From: Alphaproteobacteria bacterium
GTDB lineage: Bacteria > Pseudomonadota > Alphaproteobacteria > RF32 > CAG-239
NCBI GenBank assembly: GCA_045611785.1
Contig: JAZKXV010000012.1
Location: 82,916 to 146,915, forward strand
Length of the DNA: 64,000 nucleotides
Direction of reading: 5' to 3'
Position numbers and translations under genes: made by a program. Shown piece after piece: positions 30,792 through 52,652 of the stretch. Position 1 is the first letter of the stretch. Each line of letters starts with the position of its first letter. Below the pieces are notes generated by a model that saw only the letters and a list, made by a program, of their open reading frames with translations, was not told where the DNA came from and searched no databases.

Positions 30792-31937
30792 ATGAAAAAA
30801 ATAATTTTTTTAATAGCTTTATGTCTTATTCCTTACTTGTCTTATGCTCAAAACTTTGACTTAGCATCAGGCATAACAGAAACTGCTGAAGAAGAGGAAA
30901 CAGATACAAAAAACACTCAAGAACAAGTAGAAAATGATGATGAAAATGACGGCATATTTTCTTTCTTGAACTTTTCATTTATAAAAAAACACACATCTTC
31001 TGCTACTGATGAAACTTCTCAAACGGATCCTTCATCTCCGGAAAAAAAAGAAACACCTTTAGAAAAATTAATCAGACTTGCAAATAGCGGTAACTTAGAA
31101 TCTCAGCTTTCATTAGGTTATATGTATCTATACGGACAAGATGGCGTAAACACTGATTATTCTAAAGCTTTTCAATATTACGAAATGGCAGCAAATCAAA
31201 ACAACCCTATTGCCCTAAACAATTTAGGAAGCCTTTATTTTAACGGCATCGGTACACAAGTCAATTATCAAAAAGCTGCTGAACTGTTTTTTAAAGCCGC
31301 TCAAAATGGTAGCGATGACGCCGCTGTAAACTTAGCATTTATCTATTTAAGCTCTGACAACAATAACGGTCAACACGCAAGTGCCATTGAGTTGTTCAAA
31401 AACGCAGTACAAGTTGGCAACAATACCGCCAAATTTATGTTAGGATACGCATATTATGTTGGCTTTATTGTTGAACAAGATTATCACAAATCCGTAGCTT
31501 TAATTAAAGATGCAGCAAAAGCAAAATTCGATATTGCCCAATATATGCTGGGAATGATGTATAAAGAAGGTCACGGAATTGCTAAAAACTACGGAAATGC
31601 AGTCAAATATTTAAGAGAAGCATCTTTTCAAGGTAACGTAGATGCTATGATGGAATTAGGTAGCATACTTGCTGAAGGAAAAATATATCCCAAAAACCCA
31701 CCACATGCTCATATCTTTTTCAACGTTGCTTCAGTTTATAACGCTCCTCAAGCAGCCGAACGTCGTGATGAAGTAGAAAAAGAACTTCAAATCGAAATTT
31801 TATTGCAAGCGCAAGCATCTGCTGAAAACTTTAAAGAAAAACCATCTGAACTCACAAGTTACATCAGACAAACTTATGGTAAAGATGTAAGAATGTATAT
31901 CAACGAAAATCTAAAACAAATTAAAGGTAAAAAATGA
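30792..31937 (+). CDS. Sel1-repeat (SLR/TPR-like) secreted protein.
   Basis: Signal peptide MKKIIFLIALCLIPYLSYA, acidic linker, then at least 5 Sel1 repeats (for example AQYMLGMMYKEGHGIAKNYGNAVKYLREAS). Confidence 0.85.
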   Translation: MKKIIFLIALCLIPYLSYAQNFDLASGITETAEEEETDTKNTQEQVENDDENDGIFSFLNFSFIKKHTSSATDETSQTDPSSPEKKETPLEKLIRLANSGNLESQLSLGYMYLYGQDGVNTDYSKAFQYYEMAANQNNPIALNNLGSLYFNGIGTQVNYQKAAELFFKAAQNGSDDAAVNLAFIYLSSDNNNGQHASAIELFKNAVQVGNNTAKFMLGYAYYVGFIVEQDYHKSVALIKDAAKAKFDIAQYMLGMMYKEGHGIAKNYGNAVKYLREASFQGNVDAMMELGSILAEGKIYPKNPPHAHIFFNVASVYNAPQAAERRDEVEKELQIEILLQAQASAENFKEKPSELTSYIRQTYGKDVRMYINENLKQIKGKK

Positions 31938-44348: not shown

Positions 44349-44377
44349 GCCACCTAAACAACCGGTGGTTTTTTTAT
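44349..44377 (+). terminator. Rho-independent terminator after the M16 peptidase gene.
   Basis: gccacc...ggtggt hairpin followed by a T7 run. Confidence 0.55.
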
Positions 44378-44490
44378 TTTTTCAATAATGTTACACTAAT
44401 ATTACAATTAAGTGTTAAAAGTTTTTTTACTTGAAAAGATAAAAATAAAGTTTATGATTTAGGTATAACTTAAGTTGCAGGAGAATTATC

Positions 44491-46785
44491 ATGAAAAAAT
44501 TAGGTTTGTTATGCTTAATCTTGAGCGGACTTTACTCAAGCATGTCTGAAGCTCGAGTTTGTTTTTTAGCCGATCCTCGTTGTGGATCAGGATATGATGA
44601 GTTTTCGTTCAGTTGTAAGGATTCCTTAAGACCTGAGTGGATTCATGAAAAAGATTTATTGCCATCAAAAAGTTATGATGAAATATGTAGAGATGATACT
44701 GATGTATATTATATAGATGCTGGTTGCGATACCGAAGAGGGCTGGGTAGATATAAATAACATAGGAAATAAATATGTATGCGCATCTGAAGTGATAGATG
44801 GATGTTGTAATGAAAAAAAATGCTCTTCAAAATATACCACCTGCAGTTCTCCTACTATTGGCGGCGGTGATAAATGTACAGAAACAAATACAAAATATTA
44901 TGTAAATGGTAGCCCTTACAAATATAGCAAATGCGTTTGCGATGAAAATAAATACCCTTATAGCAGTGCAAATTGCAACAGAAGCACACACAACTTAACC
45001 GGCGAAAAATGTGAAGGAGATAACGGCACATTTTGGACTATGTGTAAAAAGAAATGCGATTTCTCAAGTGAAAAATCATGTACAAATTCTGTATCAAACT
45101 CTAAATGCGAAAAAAATAATTCTGATGGATGTTGGTATATATCAGGCTGTATTGATGGATACAAATTACAAAACGGCGTATGTGTAAGCACTTGTACACA
45201 CACAACGCAAGAATCTTGTCAAAAGCAATATACCCACTCTGAATGTAAAGCTGACGACAAAGGATGTTTTGTTCCTTATACTTGCAAATCTTCATATGTT
45301 AACTCTTGCGGTGATAAATACGATTTAACAAACACCGATGGTAACAATTGCGGCGTTTGTACAACTAAAGACTGCTCTAAATATATTGATTGCAGCAAAT
45401 TTGAAGATTTGGTAGGAAAAGGAAAATCTTGTACCAATGCTCAAGGCACCTTTTGGGAAAAATGTGAAGTTCCGGAAAAATGTTATGTGGTTAACACTTC
45501 AGACCCTGCATACACAGCAAATGGAGGAAATTGTGAAATTGTAACAACAGAAGCATCAGCAAAAACATATTTAAACAACGGATATTATGCTGTTGAAACT
45601 TGCCAACCTGTAGATACCAGTGCAAAACCTCTTGTAAGGCTCCACAAATGCGAAAGTTCAACACTTGATTGCTTAGGTAATTATCCTAACGTTTACAATG
45701 CTACTACTGGAGGTTGTTTAAACTCAAATGATGGCAAAGCAAAAACTTGCGGTGGCAAAACATATGCAACTGAATGTAAATGCAACAATAATAATGATGA
45801 AACCTTATGTAGAGTTTTTGAAATTACCGATAGTATCAAACAAGAATACAAAACTAATAGTTATGCTTCAACGAAATATCTAGGAAACACTTATATCTAT
45901 CAAGGAGATATCAAGGAAGGTTGTGAAAACTTTGATAAAAAATATGGATATTTTGCAACATGCTCATCTAACGGCACAAACTATTGCGATAAAAATAGAG
46001 GACCACTTTTCCCTGACTATCCTTATGCTTGTTCGACATCTGAAGTATGTGATGGAAAATCTATAGAATGCGGAGATTACACATATTGTTCTCAAAAATG
46101 TACCGATATTTCAGAAAAAGATCCTTGTGAAAAATATAATACATATTCTCACACAGGAAGTGTGAGTTGCAAAGTAGCAAAAGCTGGCTCTAGTATATCT
46201 TTTTACAGAGAAGTAGGAATTGTTCCTGAAACTAAAAACTCATCTGTTCAATGTGCATATTTCACATCTTGCACCACTTCTGCAAATTGCTCAAAAATTG
46301 GCATTACAGAAAGCGGAATACCAGCAGGATATCAAAGTTGTTACAACGTACCTGATAATGCTAACACACTAACATGTGGCGGTTATTCATATGCAAGCAG
46401 TTGTTGCGAATTCTTATCTAACTGCCAAGTCACAACTGATAAATCCAGACTTGAGAAAAACTTAACCAAAGGATATTATCAAGTTAATGTATCAGGCGTG
46501 GATTCAGGGTGTTACTACTATGCATCATGCACTGCTGACACTAAAGATTGTGCAGGTAACTATGCTCCGGCCAGAGGTGCCGTTGCAAAATCAAATTGTA
46601 GCACGTATGCTCCTGAGGACTACTTCACATGTGGCGGCAAAGAATATGTTAGAGATTGCTTAGCTGAATGTGCATATGATAAAACTGAAGAAGAATGCAG
46701 TGCAATAGGCAAAAAATTTAACCTTAAATGCTACAAAAAAGGTGAAAAGGGTAAAAACGACCTTAAATTAGGTGAATGCGTTTAA
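44491..46785 (+). CDS. Secreted cysteine-rich repeat protein (764 aa).
   Basis: Signal peptide MKKLGLLCLILSGLYSSMSEA. About 12% Cys, arranged in recurring spacing modules (C..GTFW..C, CGG.xY...C.C). Low complexity rich in N/K/T/Y. Own terminators downstream. Confidence 0.7.
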   Translation: MKKLGLLCLILSGLYSSMSEARVCFLADPRCGSGYDEFSFSCKDSLRPEWIHEKDLLPSKSYDEICRDDTDVYYIDAGCDTEEGWVDINNIGNKYVCASEVIDGCCNEKKCSSKYTTCSSPTIGGGDKCTETNTKYYVNGSPYKYSKCVCDENKYPYSSANCNRSTHNLTGEKCEGDNGTFWTMCKKKCDFSSEKSCTNSVSNSKCEKNNSDGCWYISGCIDGYKLQNGVCVSTCTHTTQESCQKQYTHSECKADDKGCFVPYTCKSSYVNSCGDKYDLTNTDGNNCGVCTTKDCSKYIDCSKFEDLVGKGKSCTNAQGTFWEKCEVPEKCYVVNTSDPAYTANGGNCEIVTTEASAKTYLNNGYYAVETCQPVDTSAKPLVRLHKCESSTLDCLGNYPNVYNATTGGCLNSNDGKAKTCGGKTYATECKCNNNNDETLCRVFEITDSIKQEYKTNSYASTKYLGNTYIYQGDIKEGCENFDKKYGYFATCSSNGTNYCDKNRGPLFPDYPYACSTSEVCDGKSIECGDYTYCSQKCTDISEKDPCEKYNTYSHTGSVSCKVAKAGSSISFYREVGIVPETKNSSVQCAYFTSCTTSANCSKIGITESGIPAGYQSCYNVPDNANTLTCGGYSYASSCCEFLSNCQVTTDKSRLEKNLTKGYYQVNVSGVDSGCYYYASCTADTKDCAGNYAPARGAVAKSNCSTYAPEDYFTCGGKEYVRDCLAECAYDKTEEECSAIGKKFNLKCYKKGEKGKNDLKLGECV

Positions 46786-46816
46786 TTCTTAAAATCTATA
46801 ACAACCTCAAAAAGAA

Positions 46817-46848
46817 AGCTCCGGCATAATAATCGGAGCTTTTGTTTG
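46817..46848 (+). terminator. Rho-independent terminator after the Cys-rich protein gene.
   Basis: agctccg-gcataataat-cggagct followed by tttgtttg. Confidence 0.6.
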
Positions 46849-47016
46849 TATATTTGAACAAACACTTGTTACCAAACCAATTAAAAAGTTATGATAAATC
46901 AAATATAAAAACACCTGTTATCAATATAATATATATGTTAATAATAAAAAAAGTGCTTGATTTTATTTTTTTTTATGATATGTTCCTAGTATCTTTCATA
47001 ATAACAACACTTGGAA

Positions 47017-47045
47017 GTGGGGTAAAAACCCCGCTTCTTTTTTTA
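47017..47045 (+). terminator. Terminator/attenuator-like hairpin in the rimP leader.
   Basis: gtgggg-uaaaaa-ccccgc hairpin followed by ttcttttttt, ending 15 nt before the rimP ATG. Confidence 0.45.
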
Positions 47046-49701: not shown

Positions 49702-52227
49702 ATGACAGATGATAATGCAAAAAACAAATTAACATTATCCGCAAAGTCGACATTAACGCTTAAAAATCCGGCTAAATCCGGAACATCTGATGGAAAAAAG
49801 ATGGTTCAAGTTGAAGTACGTAAAAAACGTACTATTCCAACCAATGGCGAAGTAAAAACATCAAAAGTAGAAATTGATGAAGCAACTGCTCAAAAAATTC
49901 GTTTAATCGCAGAAGCTAAAGAGCATGAAGCCAAACGATTAAAAGAACAAGAAGAAAAAGATGCTGCAAGATTGAAACAACGTGAAGAACAAGAAGCTAA
50001 ACGTTTGCAAGAAGAAAAAGAACTTGCAGAAAAAGAACGTCTTGCTCAAGAAGAACAACGCCAAAAAGAACTTGAATTAAAAAAACAAGAAGAGAAAAAA
50101 GCAAAAGAAGAAGCTAAAGCTCAACAACAAGCTCAAAATGCGCATAAAGCATCTGAAGAAGAAAAACCTCATAATCGAAATAAAAAATCTCGTGATTATG
50201 ACGATGATGACGATGATGACGGATACAAAAAAGATAGAAAATCTCAATCTTCATCTTCTAAAGCTTTAAGCAAAGCTGAAAGTTTTGAACAAGAACGCAA
50301 AAAAATTCAAAAACGTAGTTTTGAATCCCCTCGCCGTAATAATAAAGTCAATCTCAATGCATATATGAGCAATGATGATGACGACGATGATTATGGCTAT
50401 GGAGCACCTCGTCGTAAGTTTAAGAAAAAACGTCCTAAACCGGAAGTTCAAGTAACTACTACTGAAAAAATTATCAAGGAAGTTATCATTCCTGAAGTAA
50501 TAACCGTACAAGAACTTGCAAACCGTATGGCTGAAAAAAGCGCTGAAGTAATTAAAAAACTTATGGCGCTCGGTGTTATGGCAACCATTAACCAACCTAT
50601 TGATGCTGATACAGCTCAAATTGTTGTTGAAGAAATGGGTCATAAATTTAAACGAGTTGCCGACAGCGACGTTGAAGAAGGCTTAACCGGACCGGAAGAT
50701 AATGATCACGAATTATTACCAAGAGCTCCTGTAGTAACTGTTATGGGTCACGTTGACCATGGTAAAACTTCTTTATTAGATGCTTTGCGTGCAACCAATG
50801 TTGTTGCAAAAGAAGCTGGTGGTATCACTCAACACATCGGTGCATACCAAATTGAAGTTTCCGGCGGCCAAAAAATTACATTTATTGATACCCCAGGTCA
50901 CGAAGCGTTTTCAGAAATGCGTGCTCGTGGTGCAAAAGTTACCGATATTGTAGTTTTAGTTGTTGCTGCAAATGATGGTATCATGCCTCAAACAGTTGAA
51001 GCTATCAGACACGCTCAAGCTGCTGAAGTTCCGATTGTTGTTGCAATCAACAAAATTGACTTACCGGCGGCTGATCCGATGAGAGTTAAAACAGAGCTTT
51101 TACAACACGGTATTGCTGTTGAAGAAATGGGCGGTGAATGTTTATGCGCAGAAGTTTCTGCAAAAAAACGTATCAACATTGATGCTTTATTAGAAGCTAT
51201 TTTGTTACAAGCTGAAATCTTAGACTTAAAAGCAAATCCAAATCGTAAAGCAGAAGGTACAGTTATTGAAGCCAAAATGGAAAAAGGCAGAGGTAGTGTT
51301 GCTACCATCTTGGTTCAAGCCGGAACATTACGAGTTGGCGAAGTGTTTATTGCCGGTAAAGAATGGGGACACGTAAGAGCTATGTTTAACGAACATGGTA
51401 AAAAATTACATGAAGCAGGTCCTGCTACCCCAGTGGAAGTTTTAGGTTTACAAGGTACACCTTCTGCCGGTGATAACTTCATTGCTGTAAAAGATGAAGC
51501 ACAAGCTAAAGAAGTTACAAACTATCGTATAAGAAAAGAGCGCGATGCAAAACTCGTTAAGAGTGCAAAATCTGCTATGGAACAAATGCTTGATAAAATT
51601 AAATCAGGTGAAGCTAAACACTTGGCTGTTATTATCAAGGCAGATGTTCAAGGCTCTATTGAAGCAATTGAAGGAACAATCAATAAGTTTTCTAACGATG
51701 AAGTTTCTGTTCAAGTATTGCACTCTGCTGTTGGTCCGATTTCTGAGTCAGACGTTACACTTGCAAAAGCATCTAATGCCTTTATCATAGGCTTTAACGT
51801 TCGTGCAATTCCGCAAGCTCGTGACATGGCTCGTCGTGACGGCATTGATATTCGTTACTACTCAATCATTTACGATGTTGCCGATGATGTTAAGAAAGGT
51901 TTAGAAGGCTTACTTTCACCTGAAATCAGAGAAAAACTCTTGGGTTATGCTGAAATCAGAAACGTATTTAACATTACAGGCGTTGGTAAAGTTGGTGGTT
52001 GTATGGTAACTGAAGGCATTGTTAAACGTGGTGCAAAAGTTAGATTATTACGCGACAACGTTGTAATTCACGATGGGGCTCTTGCTCAGTTAAAACGCTT
52101 CAAGGAAGACGTTAAAGAAGTTAGAGAAGGTTATGAATGTGGTATGAGTTTTGAAAACTACAATGATATTCAAGTAGGTGACTTTATTGAATGTTATGAG
52201 TTAGAAACTATCGCTGCAAAATTATAA
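49702..52227 (+). CDS. infB: Translation initiation factor IF-2.
   Basis: G-domain ([24 protein letters not shown]) and conserved C-terminal domains. Long charged N-terminal region with KE-rich coiled coil and two poly-Asp stretches. Confidence 0.95.
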
Positions 52228-52238
52228 GGAGAATTAAC

Positions 52239-52652
52239 ATGGCTGTTAAAGAACCATCTCAAAGACAACTTCGTGTCGGACAAGAAATAAAAAAAATCAT
52301 TACTTCTGTACTTGAAAGAGGTGACTTAAGAAGTCAAGAAGTAAGAGACGCTATAATTACTGTAACAGAAGTTAGAGTTTCTCCTGATTTAAAATATGCC
52401 ACAGCATACATTATGACATTAAATGGTAAAAACTTAGGTTTAGTGATTGAAATGCTTAATGAAGAAGCTTGGATATTTAAAAAACAAATCGGTGCCAAAT
52501 TACAGTTAAGATACACTCCGGATATCAACTTTAGAGTTGATGATACCTTTACGGAAGTCGATAGGATTGAAAATTTGCTTCGCAACCCAAAAGTTGCACA
52601 AGATTTAGCAAAGCCAAACAATCCTGAAGAAGAAGAAGAAGAAGAAGAATAG
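52239..52652 (+). CDS. rbfA: Ribosome-binding factor A.
   Basis: RbfA KH-like core (RVGQEIKKII...VTEVRVSPDLKYATAY) and a C-terminal E8 tail encoded by (GAA)8. Confidence 0.9.
   Translation: MAVKEPSQRQLRVGQEIKKIITSVLERGDLRSQEVRDAIITVTEVRVSPDLKYATAYIMTLNGKNLGLVIEMLNEEAWIFKKQIGAKLQLRYTPDINFRVDDTFTEVDRIENLLRNPKVAQDLAKPNNPEEEEEEEE

Follow-up and report, generated by a model that had tools for sequence, protein, structure and literature searches.

Bacterial surface proteins built from cysteine-rich repeats have been described in Myxococcus, where the TraA-type receptors carry TIGR04201/DUF4215 repeats (PMC3325183), and secreted chains of several tandem disulfide-rich modules are described from animal venoms as SCREPs (PMC6262176). 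Here, we describe a 764-residue cysteine-rich protein encoded at positions 44491–46785 (+ strand, stop codon included) of a 64,000-nucleotide stretch of contig JAZKXV010000012.1 from an alphaproteobacterium of the RF32 lineage (GenBank assembly GCA_045611785.1). This whole stretch is referred to below as the window and, unless stated otherwise, all coordinates are those of the window. The coordinates and length of the open reading frame (ORF) proposed in an initial annotation agree exactly with the ORF listing, and an identical protein is on record (P0001). The protein belongs to a bacterial family of exported, cysteine-rich, modular proteins that comprises about 100 sequence clusters and is annotated in no database. 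On balance, we favor its interpretation as an extracytoplasmic, non-enzymatic, disulfide-stabilized scaffold or binding protein that combines a constant head with variable tails.

A word-indexed search of 5.8 billion proteins returned four homologues and a weak fifth, while 98 of 1.84 billion cluster representatives matched in an exhaustive profile search at E ≤ 1e-3, 66 of them at E ≤ 1e-10; a word-indexed search with a 75-sequence alignment added P0112 only. About 75 of the 98 representatives match the N-terminal head of the window protein (residues 22–232; 44554–45186, + strand) and have a signal peptide followed immediately by the motif (R/K)(V/I)CFL(A/P)(G/D). Between residues 24 and 231, each of 22 cysteine positions is kept by at least 85% of these 75 head-bearing members at a sequence identity of only about 25–30%, and C24, C31, C42, C66 and C79 are present in all 75. 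The window protein carries the complete signature of this group, with an E value of 3e-34 against the head hidden Markov model (HMM), all 22 cysteine positions and the mature N-terminal motif RVCFLAD at residues 22–28. In a second group, which overlaps with the first, about 25 representatives share only a C-terminal module, designated D, in two to four tandem copies ending in GKxFxxKC...GEC. The tails that follow the head are diverse and consist of D-module arrays, arrays of a ~43-residue six-cysteine module or cysteine-poor segments (P0005, P0016 and P0112), the last of which look β-helix-like by eye. Among four full-length homologues (38–40% identical), 56 of the 72 mature cysteines are invariant and the other invariant residues are mostly Gly, Tyr, Asp and Pro; together with a histidine content of only 0.8%, this suggests a structural rather than a catalytic or metal-binding protein.

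Family members were found in ENA, Logan and NCBI assemblies, and a scan of genome collections located one locus, in a fecal Alphaproteobacteria metagenome-assembled genome; no member turned up in a pattern scan of JGI metagenomes. No informative name is attached to the relatives in any source, the single recorded name belonging to a 48-residue cysteine-free cluster member and being irrelevant. An HMM scan of the window and of 16 of the 18 homologous loci (all but L017 and L018) revealed no second family member. The window has a GC content of about 33% (34% to 53% across the family loci), and Lol, LptD, SurA, RlpA and MreBCD-PBP2-RodA are recognizable in its translations; the Lol, LptD, SurA and RlpA genes identify the organism as a diderm.

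The signal peptide (residues 1–21; 44491–44553, + strand), which had been noted at the outset, shows the canonical Sec arrangement of n, h and c regions, visible in the sequence: in the N-terminus MKKLGLLCLILSGLYSSMSEA|RV, a positive n-region (MKK) leads into a hydrophobic core of 12 residues, S-E-A occupies positions −3 to −1, and signal peptidase I is predicted to cut at SEA|RV. The cleavage-site pattern A/S-x-A/S|(R/K)(V/I)CFL is kept across the family and its A/S-x-A/S|(R/K) portion, judged by its residues, fits signal peptidase I. A bacterial lipoprotein was considered and rejected, as there is no lipobox of the form [LVI][ASTVI][GAS]C and the conserved Cys24 is preceded by A-R-V, or by (R/K/S)-(V/I) in relatives; by contrast, the lipobox of an RlpA-like ORF in this genome is the canonical L-Y-G-C.

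With 73 cysteines (9.6%), 72 of them in the mature chain, the protein has the highest cysteine content in the window, where the median for ORFs of at least 200 residues is 1.1%. The initial annotation was thus right in singling it out, although its figure of about 12% was too high, and several of the motifs that it listed needed revision. The GTFW motif is present in two copies, but with the spacing C-x4-GTFW-x2-C instead of C-x2-GTFW-x2-C, and C-G-G-x-x-Y-x3-C-x-C occurs once in its exact form and in two looser variants (CGGxxY is found three times, with differing endings). The multiple CxxC-like pairs come down to a single CxxC at residues 287–290. Otherwise the cysteines are spread out, with a typical gap of 6–16 residues, two CxC and two CC. 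The claim of recurring modules, on the other hand, was upheld by internal repeat detection, in that the repeats exist as whole modules even though the cysteine spacing has no simple periodicity.

In a BLASTP self-comparison, the identity match alone was obtained, contained off-diagonal matches being culled, and diagonal and gapped self-alignments were therefore compared with shuffled sequences. No single ungapped repeat segment rose above the shuffles (top score 60, null maximum 68), but three co-linear segments share a common offset of about 294–297 residues, and gapped alignment of residues 335–445 with 632–764 gave a score of 106 compared with 37 ± 7 for shuffles (z = 10.1, none of 500 as good). 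Residues 180–232 also align with 226–275 (z = 5.0, again none of 500), which delineates a tandem pair of ~43-residue modules (residues 189–231 and 235–275; 45055–45315, + strand) with the six-cysteine pattern C-x7-C-x8-C-x7-C-x5-C-x2-GY-x6-C. By reading, the 1543-residue relative P0023 contains a long array of this same module, three copies of which were caught by a regular expression. A motif search located a cysteine-stapled hairpin at residues 174–189 (CEGDNGTFWTMCKKKC; 45010–45057, + strand), and motif search and self-alignment a second at residues 314–331 (CTNAQGTFWEKCEVPEKC; 45430–45483, + strand); the two align with each other at z = 3.9 (three of 500 shuffles as good), and the general motif C-x1-5-G-x1-2-[YFW]-x2-5-C-x0-3-C occurs four times in the window protein against 0.49 expected. 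An HMM of the D module (~95–120 residues), built solely from the tail-only relatives, identified one copy at residues 344–441 (GYY...DCxGNY...TCGGKTY..C.C; 45520–45813, + strand; i-E value 5e-12) and another at residues 644–763 (46420–46779, + strand; i-E value 2e-27), so that the chain ends in a cysteine-rich D module closing with GECV, within the C-terminal sequence GKxFxLKC...GEC(V/I) that the family conserves. Two marginal, degenerate segments between them, residues 457–548 and 581–647 (45859–46431, + strand; i-E value of about 1e-3 each), are possibly weak copies of the same module, to judge from their HMM matches.

Structure prediction with AlphaFold2 (AF2) depended on the depth of the alignment. 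Five sequences gave a mean predicted local distance difference test (pLDDT) score of 41 and meaningless Foldseek matches, with the tandem six-cysteine region at about 70–80, while 97 sequences gave 10-residue-block means of 84–98 for residues 41–190 (91–98 for residues 51–190). The core of the head is predicted to be all-β, with long hairpins 60–67/72–79, 122–130/143–150 and 167–176/179–187, each bounded by conserved cysteines. The first stapled hairpin motif corresponds to strands 167–176 and 179–187, with pLDDT above 90; for the second motif, the five-sequence model placed strands at 308–316 and 319–326. The larger alignment improved the head alone; that of the C-terminal modules is probably too messy to help there. 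A Foldseek search of the PDB with the head model found no match (best E value of 3.2), and nothing at E ≤ 0.001 was obtained against the PDB and BFVD. As modeled, the head is a confidently predicted domain without a counterpart among the solved structures searched.

Sequence libraries were equally unrevealing. For the window protein, no family was matched in Pfam or NCBIfam at E ≤ 10 or in PHROGs or PADLOC at E ≤ 0.01, there were no matches to PDB sequences, and searching those sequences with profiles of the head and of the tail gave nothing meaningful. Among 75 head-bearing and 27 further relatives, Pfam yielded two weak cEGF matches (two of the 75, best E value of 4e-4) and single stray ones, including a weak match to DUF4215 in one of the 75 (E value of 1.5e-3); NCBIfam yielded nothing for the 75. 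Several candidate classes were considered and set aside. Giardia variant-specific surface protein (VSP) or furin-like repeats are not indicated, with one CxxC in 764 residues and no match to Pfam VSP, Furin-like or GCC2_GCC3. An autotransporter or type V adhesin is not supported by any Pfam match, and the C-terminus is the cysteine-rich module and not a barrel. Metallothioneins are small proteins with typically about 30% cysteine in dense CxC/CC/CxxC clusters, and the window protein, at its much lower content and wide cysteine gaps, is without such clusters. The CysRRep motif from a 2026 preprint, Cx6-9Cx5-7Cx8-11Cx7-8CC, differs from those found here.

These observations suggest the following scheme. 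With a promoter-like site, a ribosome-binding site and a terminator of its own, the gene would stand alone as a unit; its product would be exported by the Sec pathway, with signal peptidase I cleaving after Ala21. The 72 mature cysteines would then, in most or all cases, be structural, most likely in disulfides formed in the periplasm; such a role is argued for by the constancy of the cysteine positions amid changing sequence and by the cysteine-bounded hairpins of the confident model. The mature chain may be pictured as a ~210-residue all-β head, two six-cysteine modules and two to four copies of the D module, together forming a rigid, protease-resistant product, presumably at the cell surface or outside the cell. 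The head, kept constant while the rest is swapped across the family, could have a shared task (secretion, anchoring or assembly), with binding specificity coming from the variable tail.

Several observations weigh against this scheme. Only about 150 of the 764 residues were modeled confidently, the rest having pLDDT below 50 in the 97-sequence model. The number of cysteines in the mature chain is not preferentially even (45 even and 34 odd across the family, p = 0.26, some representatives being fragments), so that full pairing is not demonstrated; an analysis of correlated cysteine loss was confounded by truncated sequences. There is no Dsb or thioredoxin gene within the window, and no outer-membrane anchor, autotransporter barrel, lipobox or C-terminal sorting tag is recognizable in the protein. 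The neighboring genes also differ by subgroup (M16 peptidase/rimP, mlaA-mlaC, a redoxin, ftsZ or peptidase M3; in the further subgroups, one homologue follows ftsQAZ and another a peptidase M3 gene), leaving no operon partner that points to a function.

The high cysteine content, and the odd count in many relatives, which implies at least one free thiol, would also suit a periplasmic thiol buffer or a metal-sequestering, metallothionein-like protein in which the cysteines are ligands instead of disulfide partners. One subgroup further has an exported TlpA/ResA-like thioredoxin-fold gene (WSRxC(G/A)PC) directly upstream of the homologue and on the same strand in two species (locus coordinates 6387–6923 in L017 and 7367–7897 in L018; also 1–345 in L006). 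In L017 and L018, a conserved promoter-like element, TTGACG...TA(T/C)A(C/A)T, lies between this gene and the homologue, at the position of the promoter-like site of the window gene. The adjacency is suggestive of disulfide handling but may be no more than a gene order that related species have kept. Ligand cysteines are nevertheless improbable given the dispersion of the cysteines and the scarcity of close pairs, the low content of histidine and methionine (0.4% for the latter), the fixed cysteine positions in otherwise variable sequence and their location at the ends of β-hairpins in the confident model, the usual pattern of disulfide staples. A different placement, as an envelope-resident structural component that is periplasmic or outer-membrane-associated and linked, for example, to outer-membrane lipid homeostasis, a pilus or type IV secretion, draws on the gene neighborhoods. 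In six loci (L001, L002, L009, L010, L011 and L012), the family gene lies directly downstream of mlaA-mlaC; virB10/virB11 and an aminotransferase gene are found upstream in L001, L002, L009 and L010, and Bundlin/PilS-type pilin genes occur within a few kilobases in L009, L010, L011 and L018. The lack of a recognizable signal for crossing the outer membrane points in the same direction. However, the surroundings are unrelated for the window gene and for the P0002, P0016 and P0112 subgroups, and the mlaA-mlaC slot looks like a conserved but length-variable locus, with family members of 325, 876, 880 and 1543 residues; this range and the varied tails are more usual in exposed proteins than in parts of a machine. 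We regard an envelope-resident component as unlikely.

The modular variability of the family is likewise what might be expected of a secreted effector (a toxin, bacteriocin or protease inhibitor) with modules acting on other cells or on host enzymes, and disulfide-rich multi-domain secreted proteins of this type, the SCREPs, are described as animal toxins (PMC6262176). Such a role seems quite improbable: at the loci examined, no gene for immunity, transport or processing adjoins the family gene, PADLOC and PHROG matches are lacking, and the large size and conserved head are untypical of bacteriocins. The resemblance to eukaryotic extracellular repeats put forward initially, together with the suggestion of host mimicry, would make the protein a homologue, possibly eukaryote-derived, of EGF, furin-like or Giardia VSP repeats. 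Its composition is indeed of the cysteine-rich extracellular type, and the EGF_2 pattern occurs in 35 of the 102 relatives compared with two of 102 shuffled sequences, alongside the two weak cEGF matches; the top Foldseek match of the first, low-confidence model was also an EGF pair, that of MSP1 (PDB code 1b9w), albeit with an E value of 0.54 and a probability of 0.33. Against this, no homology was detected for the window protein itself: besides the empty Pfam search and the lone CxxC, the PROSITE patterns EGF_1 (C-x-C-x5-G-x2-C) and EGF_2 (C-x-C-x2-[GP]-[FYW]-x4-8-C) are absent, with only the half-motif C-x2-G-Y-x6-C at residues 220–231, and the confident head model is unmatched in the PDB. 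The EGF-like trace at the family level shows a short conserved motif and not domain homology for the window protein. No relative carries any annotation, eukaryotic or other; every relative with a readable locus lies among bacterial genes of diderm type, and the base composition of the examined loci is that of their flanks. A host mimic of eukaryotic descent is accordingly very unlikely, and a likeness to EGF or VSP read from composition alone fails once tested. The role as an adhesin or host mimic that was suggested initially is conjectural.

Returning to the disulfide-stabilized scaffold or binding protein, the conserved mature N-terminus is the most intriguing feature of the protein. The tail-only relatives P0072, P0100, P0105 and P0111 have x-V-x-(F/L)-L-P-D right behind the signal peptide, with the cysteine replaced (KVWLLPDY, KVTFLPDW, FLYFLPDY and AQFLPDI). 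Persistence of the motif where the cysteine has been replaced indicates that pairing in a disulfide is not the sole reason for its conservation. Literature searches on the N-terminal motif, and on RF32 together with 'cysteine-rich', found nothing relevant. A speculative and, on present evidence, doubtful extension of the scheme is that the head is a new fold of disulfide-stapled β-hairpins and that the motif is an undescribed signal for sorting or attachment of a variable-tailed family to the cell surface. If this were true, the motif would point to a new export or anchoring route and the family would be the principal variable surface repertoire of these gut bacteria.

As annotated initially, the gene lies between housekeeping genes, with an M16 peptidase gene upstream and rimP-nusA-ylxR-infB downstream. 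A promoter-like site, TTGAAA-16-TATGAT (44431–44458, + strand), ends 32 nucleotides before the ATG; identified by consensus match only, it scored 10/12 and was the top + strand site of the intergenic region. A ribosome-binding site, GCAGGAGA (GGAG; 44477–44484, + strand), read from the sequence, is located six nucleotides before the ATG. Directly past the stop codon of the M16 peptidase gene, a GCCACC/GGTGG hairpin with a nine-nucleotide loop is followed by a long T-run (44349–44378, + strand); it was overlooked by the terminator scanner, which has a loop limit of eight nucleotides, and it supports the cysteine-rich gene as a separate transcription unit. The order M16 peptidase gene–family gene–rimP is kept in three near-identical strains (L013–L015; 99.4–100% identity per gene), where the ORF is intact with six synonymous and seven non-synonymous differences (dN/dS of about 0.29). 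Replacements in the gene exceed those of its neighbors, yet it is not decaying.

The two terminators that had been assigned to the gene appear to have different owners. Two hairpins are present, the first of which, detected by the terminator scan, has an 11-base-pair stem (46814–46843) followed by TTTTGTTTGT (46814–46850 overall, + strand), begins 28 nucleotides past the stop codon and is found in both the minimum-free-energy and the centroid folds of the intergenic RNA; it is plausibly the terminator of the cysteine-rich gene. The second, GAAGTGGGG-TAAAAA-CCCCGCTTC followed by T7 (hairpin 47013–47038; 47013–47045 overall, + strand), was found by the terminator scan and RNA folding, and its T-run stops 14 nucleotides before the rimP ATG (47060), leaving no room for a promoter, so that every rimP-nusA-infB transcript passes through it. 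The rimP-leader, for which a role in NusA feedback has been proposed (Naville and Gautheret 2010, PMC2965389), is a terminator with a G-rich 5' arm, a C-rich 3' arm and a U-run located 4–130 nucleotides before rimP. The window hairpin shares the G-rich and C-rich arms, the U-run, the spacing to rimP and the absence of a visible antiterminator, but differs in its core, which is GGGG...CCCC compared with the published GGGc...gCCC (PMC2965389). An Rfam scan of the intergenic region at E ≤ 10 returned no rimP-leader family and only sub-threshold, terminator-driven matches. The best of these, to the streptococcal csRNA family (46941–47040, + strand; 39.9 bits compared with a gathering score of 57, E value of 4e-4), is probably a chance match of this kind; the matched stretch consists of an AT-rich hairpin and the rimP-proximal terminator and outlines a two-hairpin leader. 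From its sequence and position, the second hairpin is likely to be an attenuator in the leader of rimP-nusA-infB and not a part of the cysteine-rich gene.

Other genes of the window merit brief mention. A type IV pilin-like ORF of 203 residues (25475–26086, − strand) has the N-terminus ...FG|RSMVEMLGVLAIVGVLSVGAITGY and seven cysteines, which are confined to its C-terminal third. Pfam gave no match for it, and its N-terminal half is 41–55% identical to the Bundlin/PilS-annotated genes of L009, L011 and L018 (the same Bundlin/PilS gene is carried by L010). An ORF of 1834 residues (12242–17746, + strand), in which an N-terminal M48 peptidase segment (HELGH) is the sole recognizable domain, is followed by an APH/choline-kinase-like phosphotransferase (17765–18700, + strand), and the pair looks effector-like, with no other annotation. 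Two paralogous tandem ORFs (21135–22487, 450 residues, and 22530–24179, 549 residues; both + strand) have near-identical N-termini, MWPFSKK..EEKRNK.AEQQKKYAQY, and neither these nor the next ORF (24237–24794, 185 residues) has a Pfam match. A Sel1-repeat protein with a signal peptide is encoded at 30792–31937 (+ strand; Pfam Sel1 E value of 5e-35); the Sel1-repeat family is often linked to host association. Downstream of the cysteine-rich gene, the N-terminal extension of IF2 (49702–52227, + strand) is long and highly charged and contains the poly-Asp run DDDDDDD twice, and RbfA (52239–52652, + strand) has a C-terminal run of eight Glu.

To our knowledge, low-GC gut Alphaproteobacteria are represented almost only by metagenome-assembled genomes, and next to nothing is known of their interactions with hosts or other microbes. 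The family is a concrete candidate for a part in their surface or envelope biology, and the head is a candidate for a new Pfam domain family. The result is descriptive, and the function is one that we infer.

Comparison with known systems places the protein among modular cysteine-rich proteins in general. With SCREPs (PMC6262176), the resemblance is one of concept only, that of secreted tandem disulfide-rich modules. SCREPs are animal proteins with small knottin-type domains, and no relation was detected for the window protein in the Pfam and PDB comparisons. Eukaryotic EGF domains, which are defined by the disulfide connectivity 1–3, 2–4 and 5–6 and a two-hairpin fold, and cEGF domains resemble the six-cysteine module at residues 189–231 in its C-x2-G-Y-x6-C ending, with the full EGF_2 pattern in many relatives, and in the two short hairpins predicted for it in the first, low-confidence AF2 model; the window protein differs in lacking the full pattern, in a Cys4–Cys5 spacing of five residues instead of one and in having no Pfam EGF-family match and no significant structural match. 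The TraA-type receptors differ in their families, given the absence of NCBIfam matches in the window protein and the 75 members (a library that we take to include TIGR04201) and the weak DUF4215 match in only one of the 75. The window protein also lacks a PA14 domain and any C-terminal sorting tag, MYXO-CTERM included, and its head is itself cysteine-rich, with a predicted fold without known counterpart. The two nevertheless share a diderm bacterial origin, a signal sequence of type I, an N-terminal domain set apart from the variable number of tandem cysteine-rich repeats behind it, and paralogues or relatives with an identical layout on both sides (PMC3325183). The window protein, while belonging to none of the families tested, thus resembles in kind the cysteine-repeat surface proteins of the Myxococcus TraA type.

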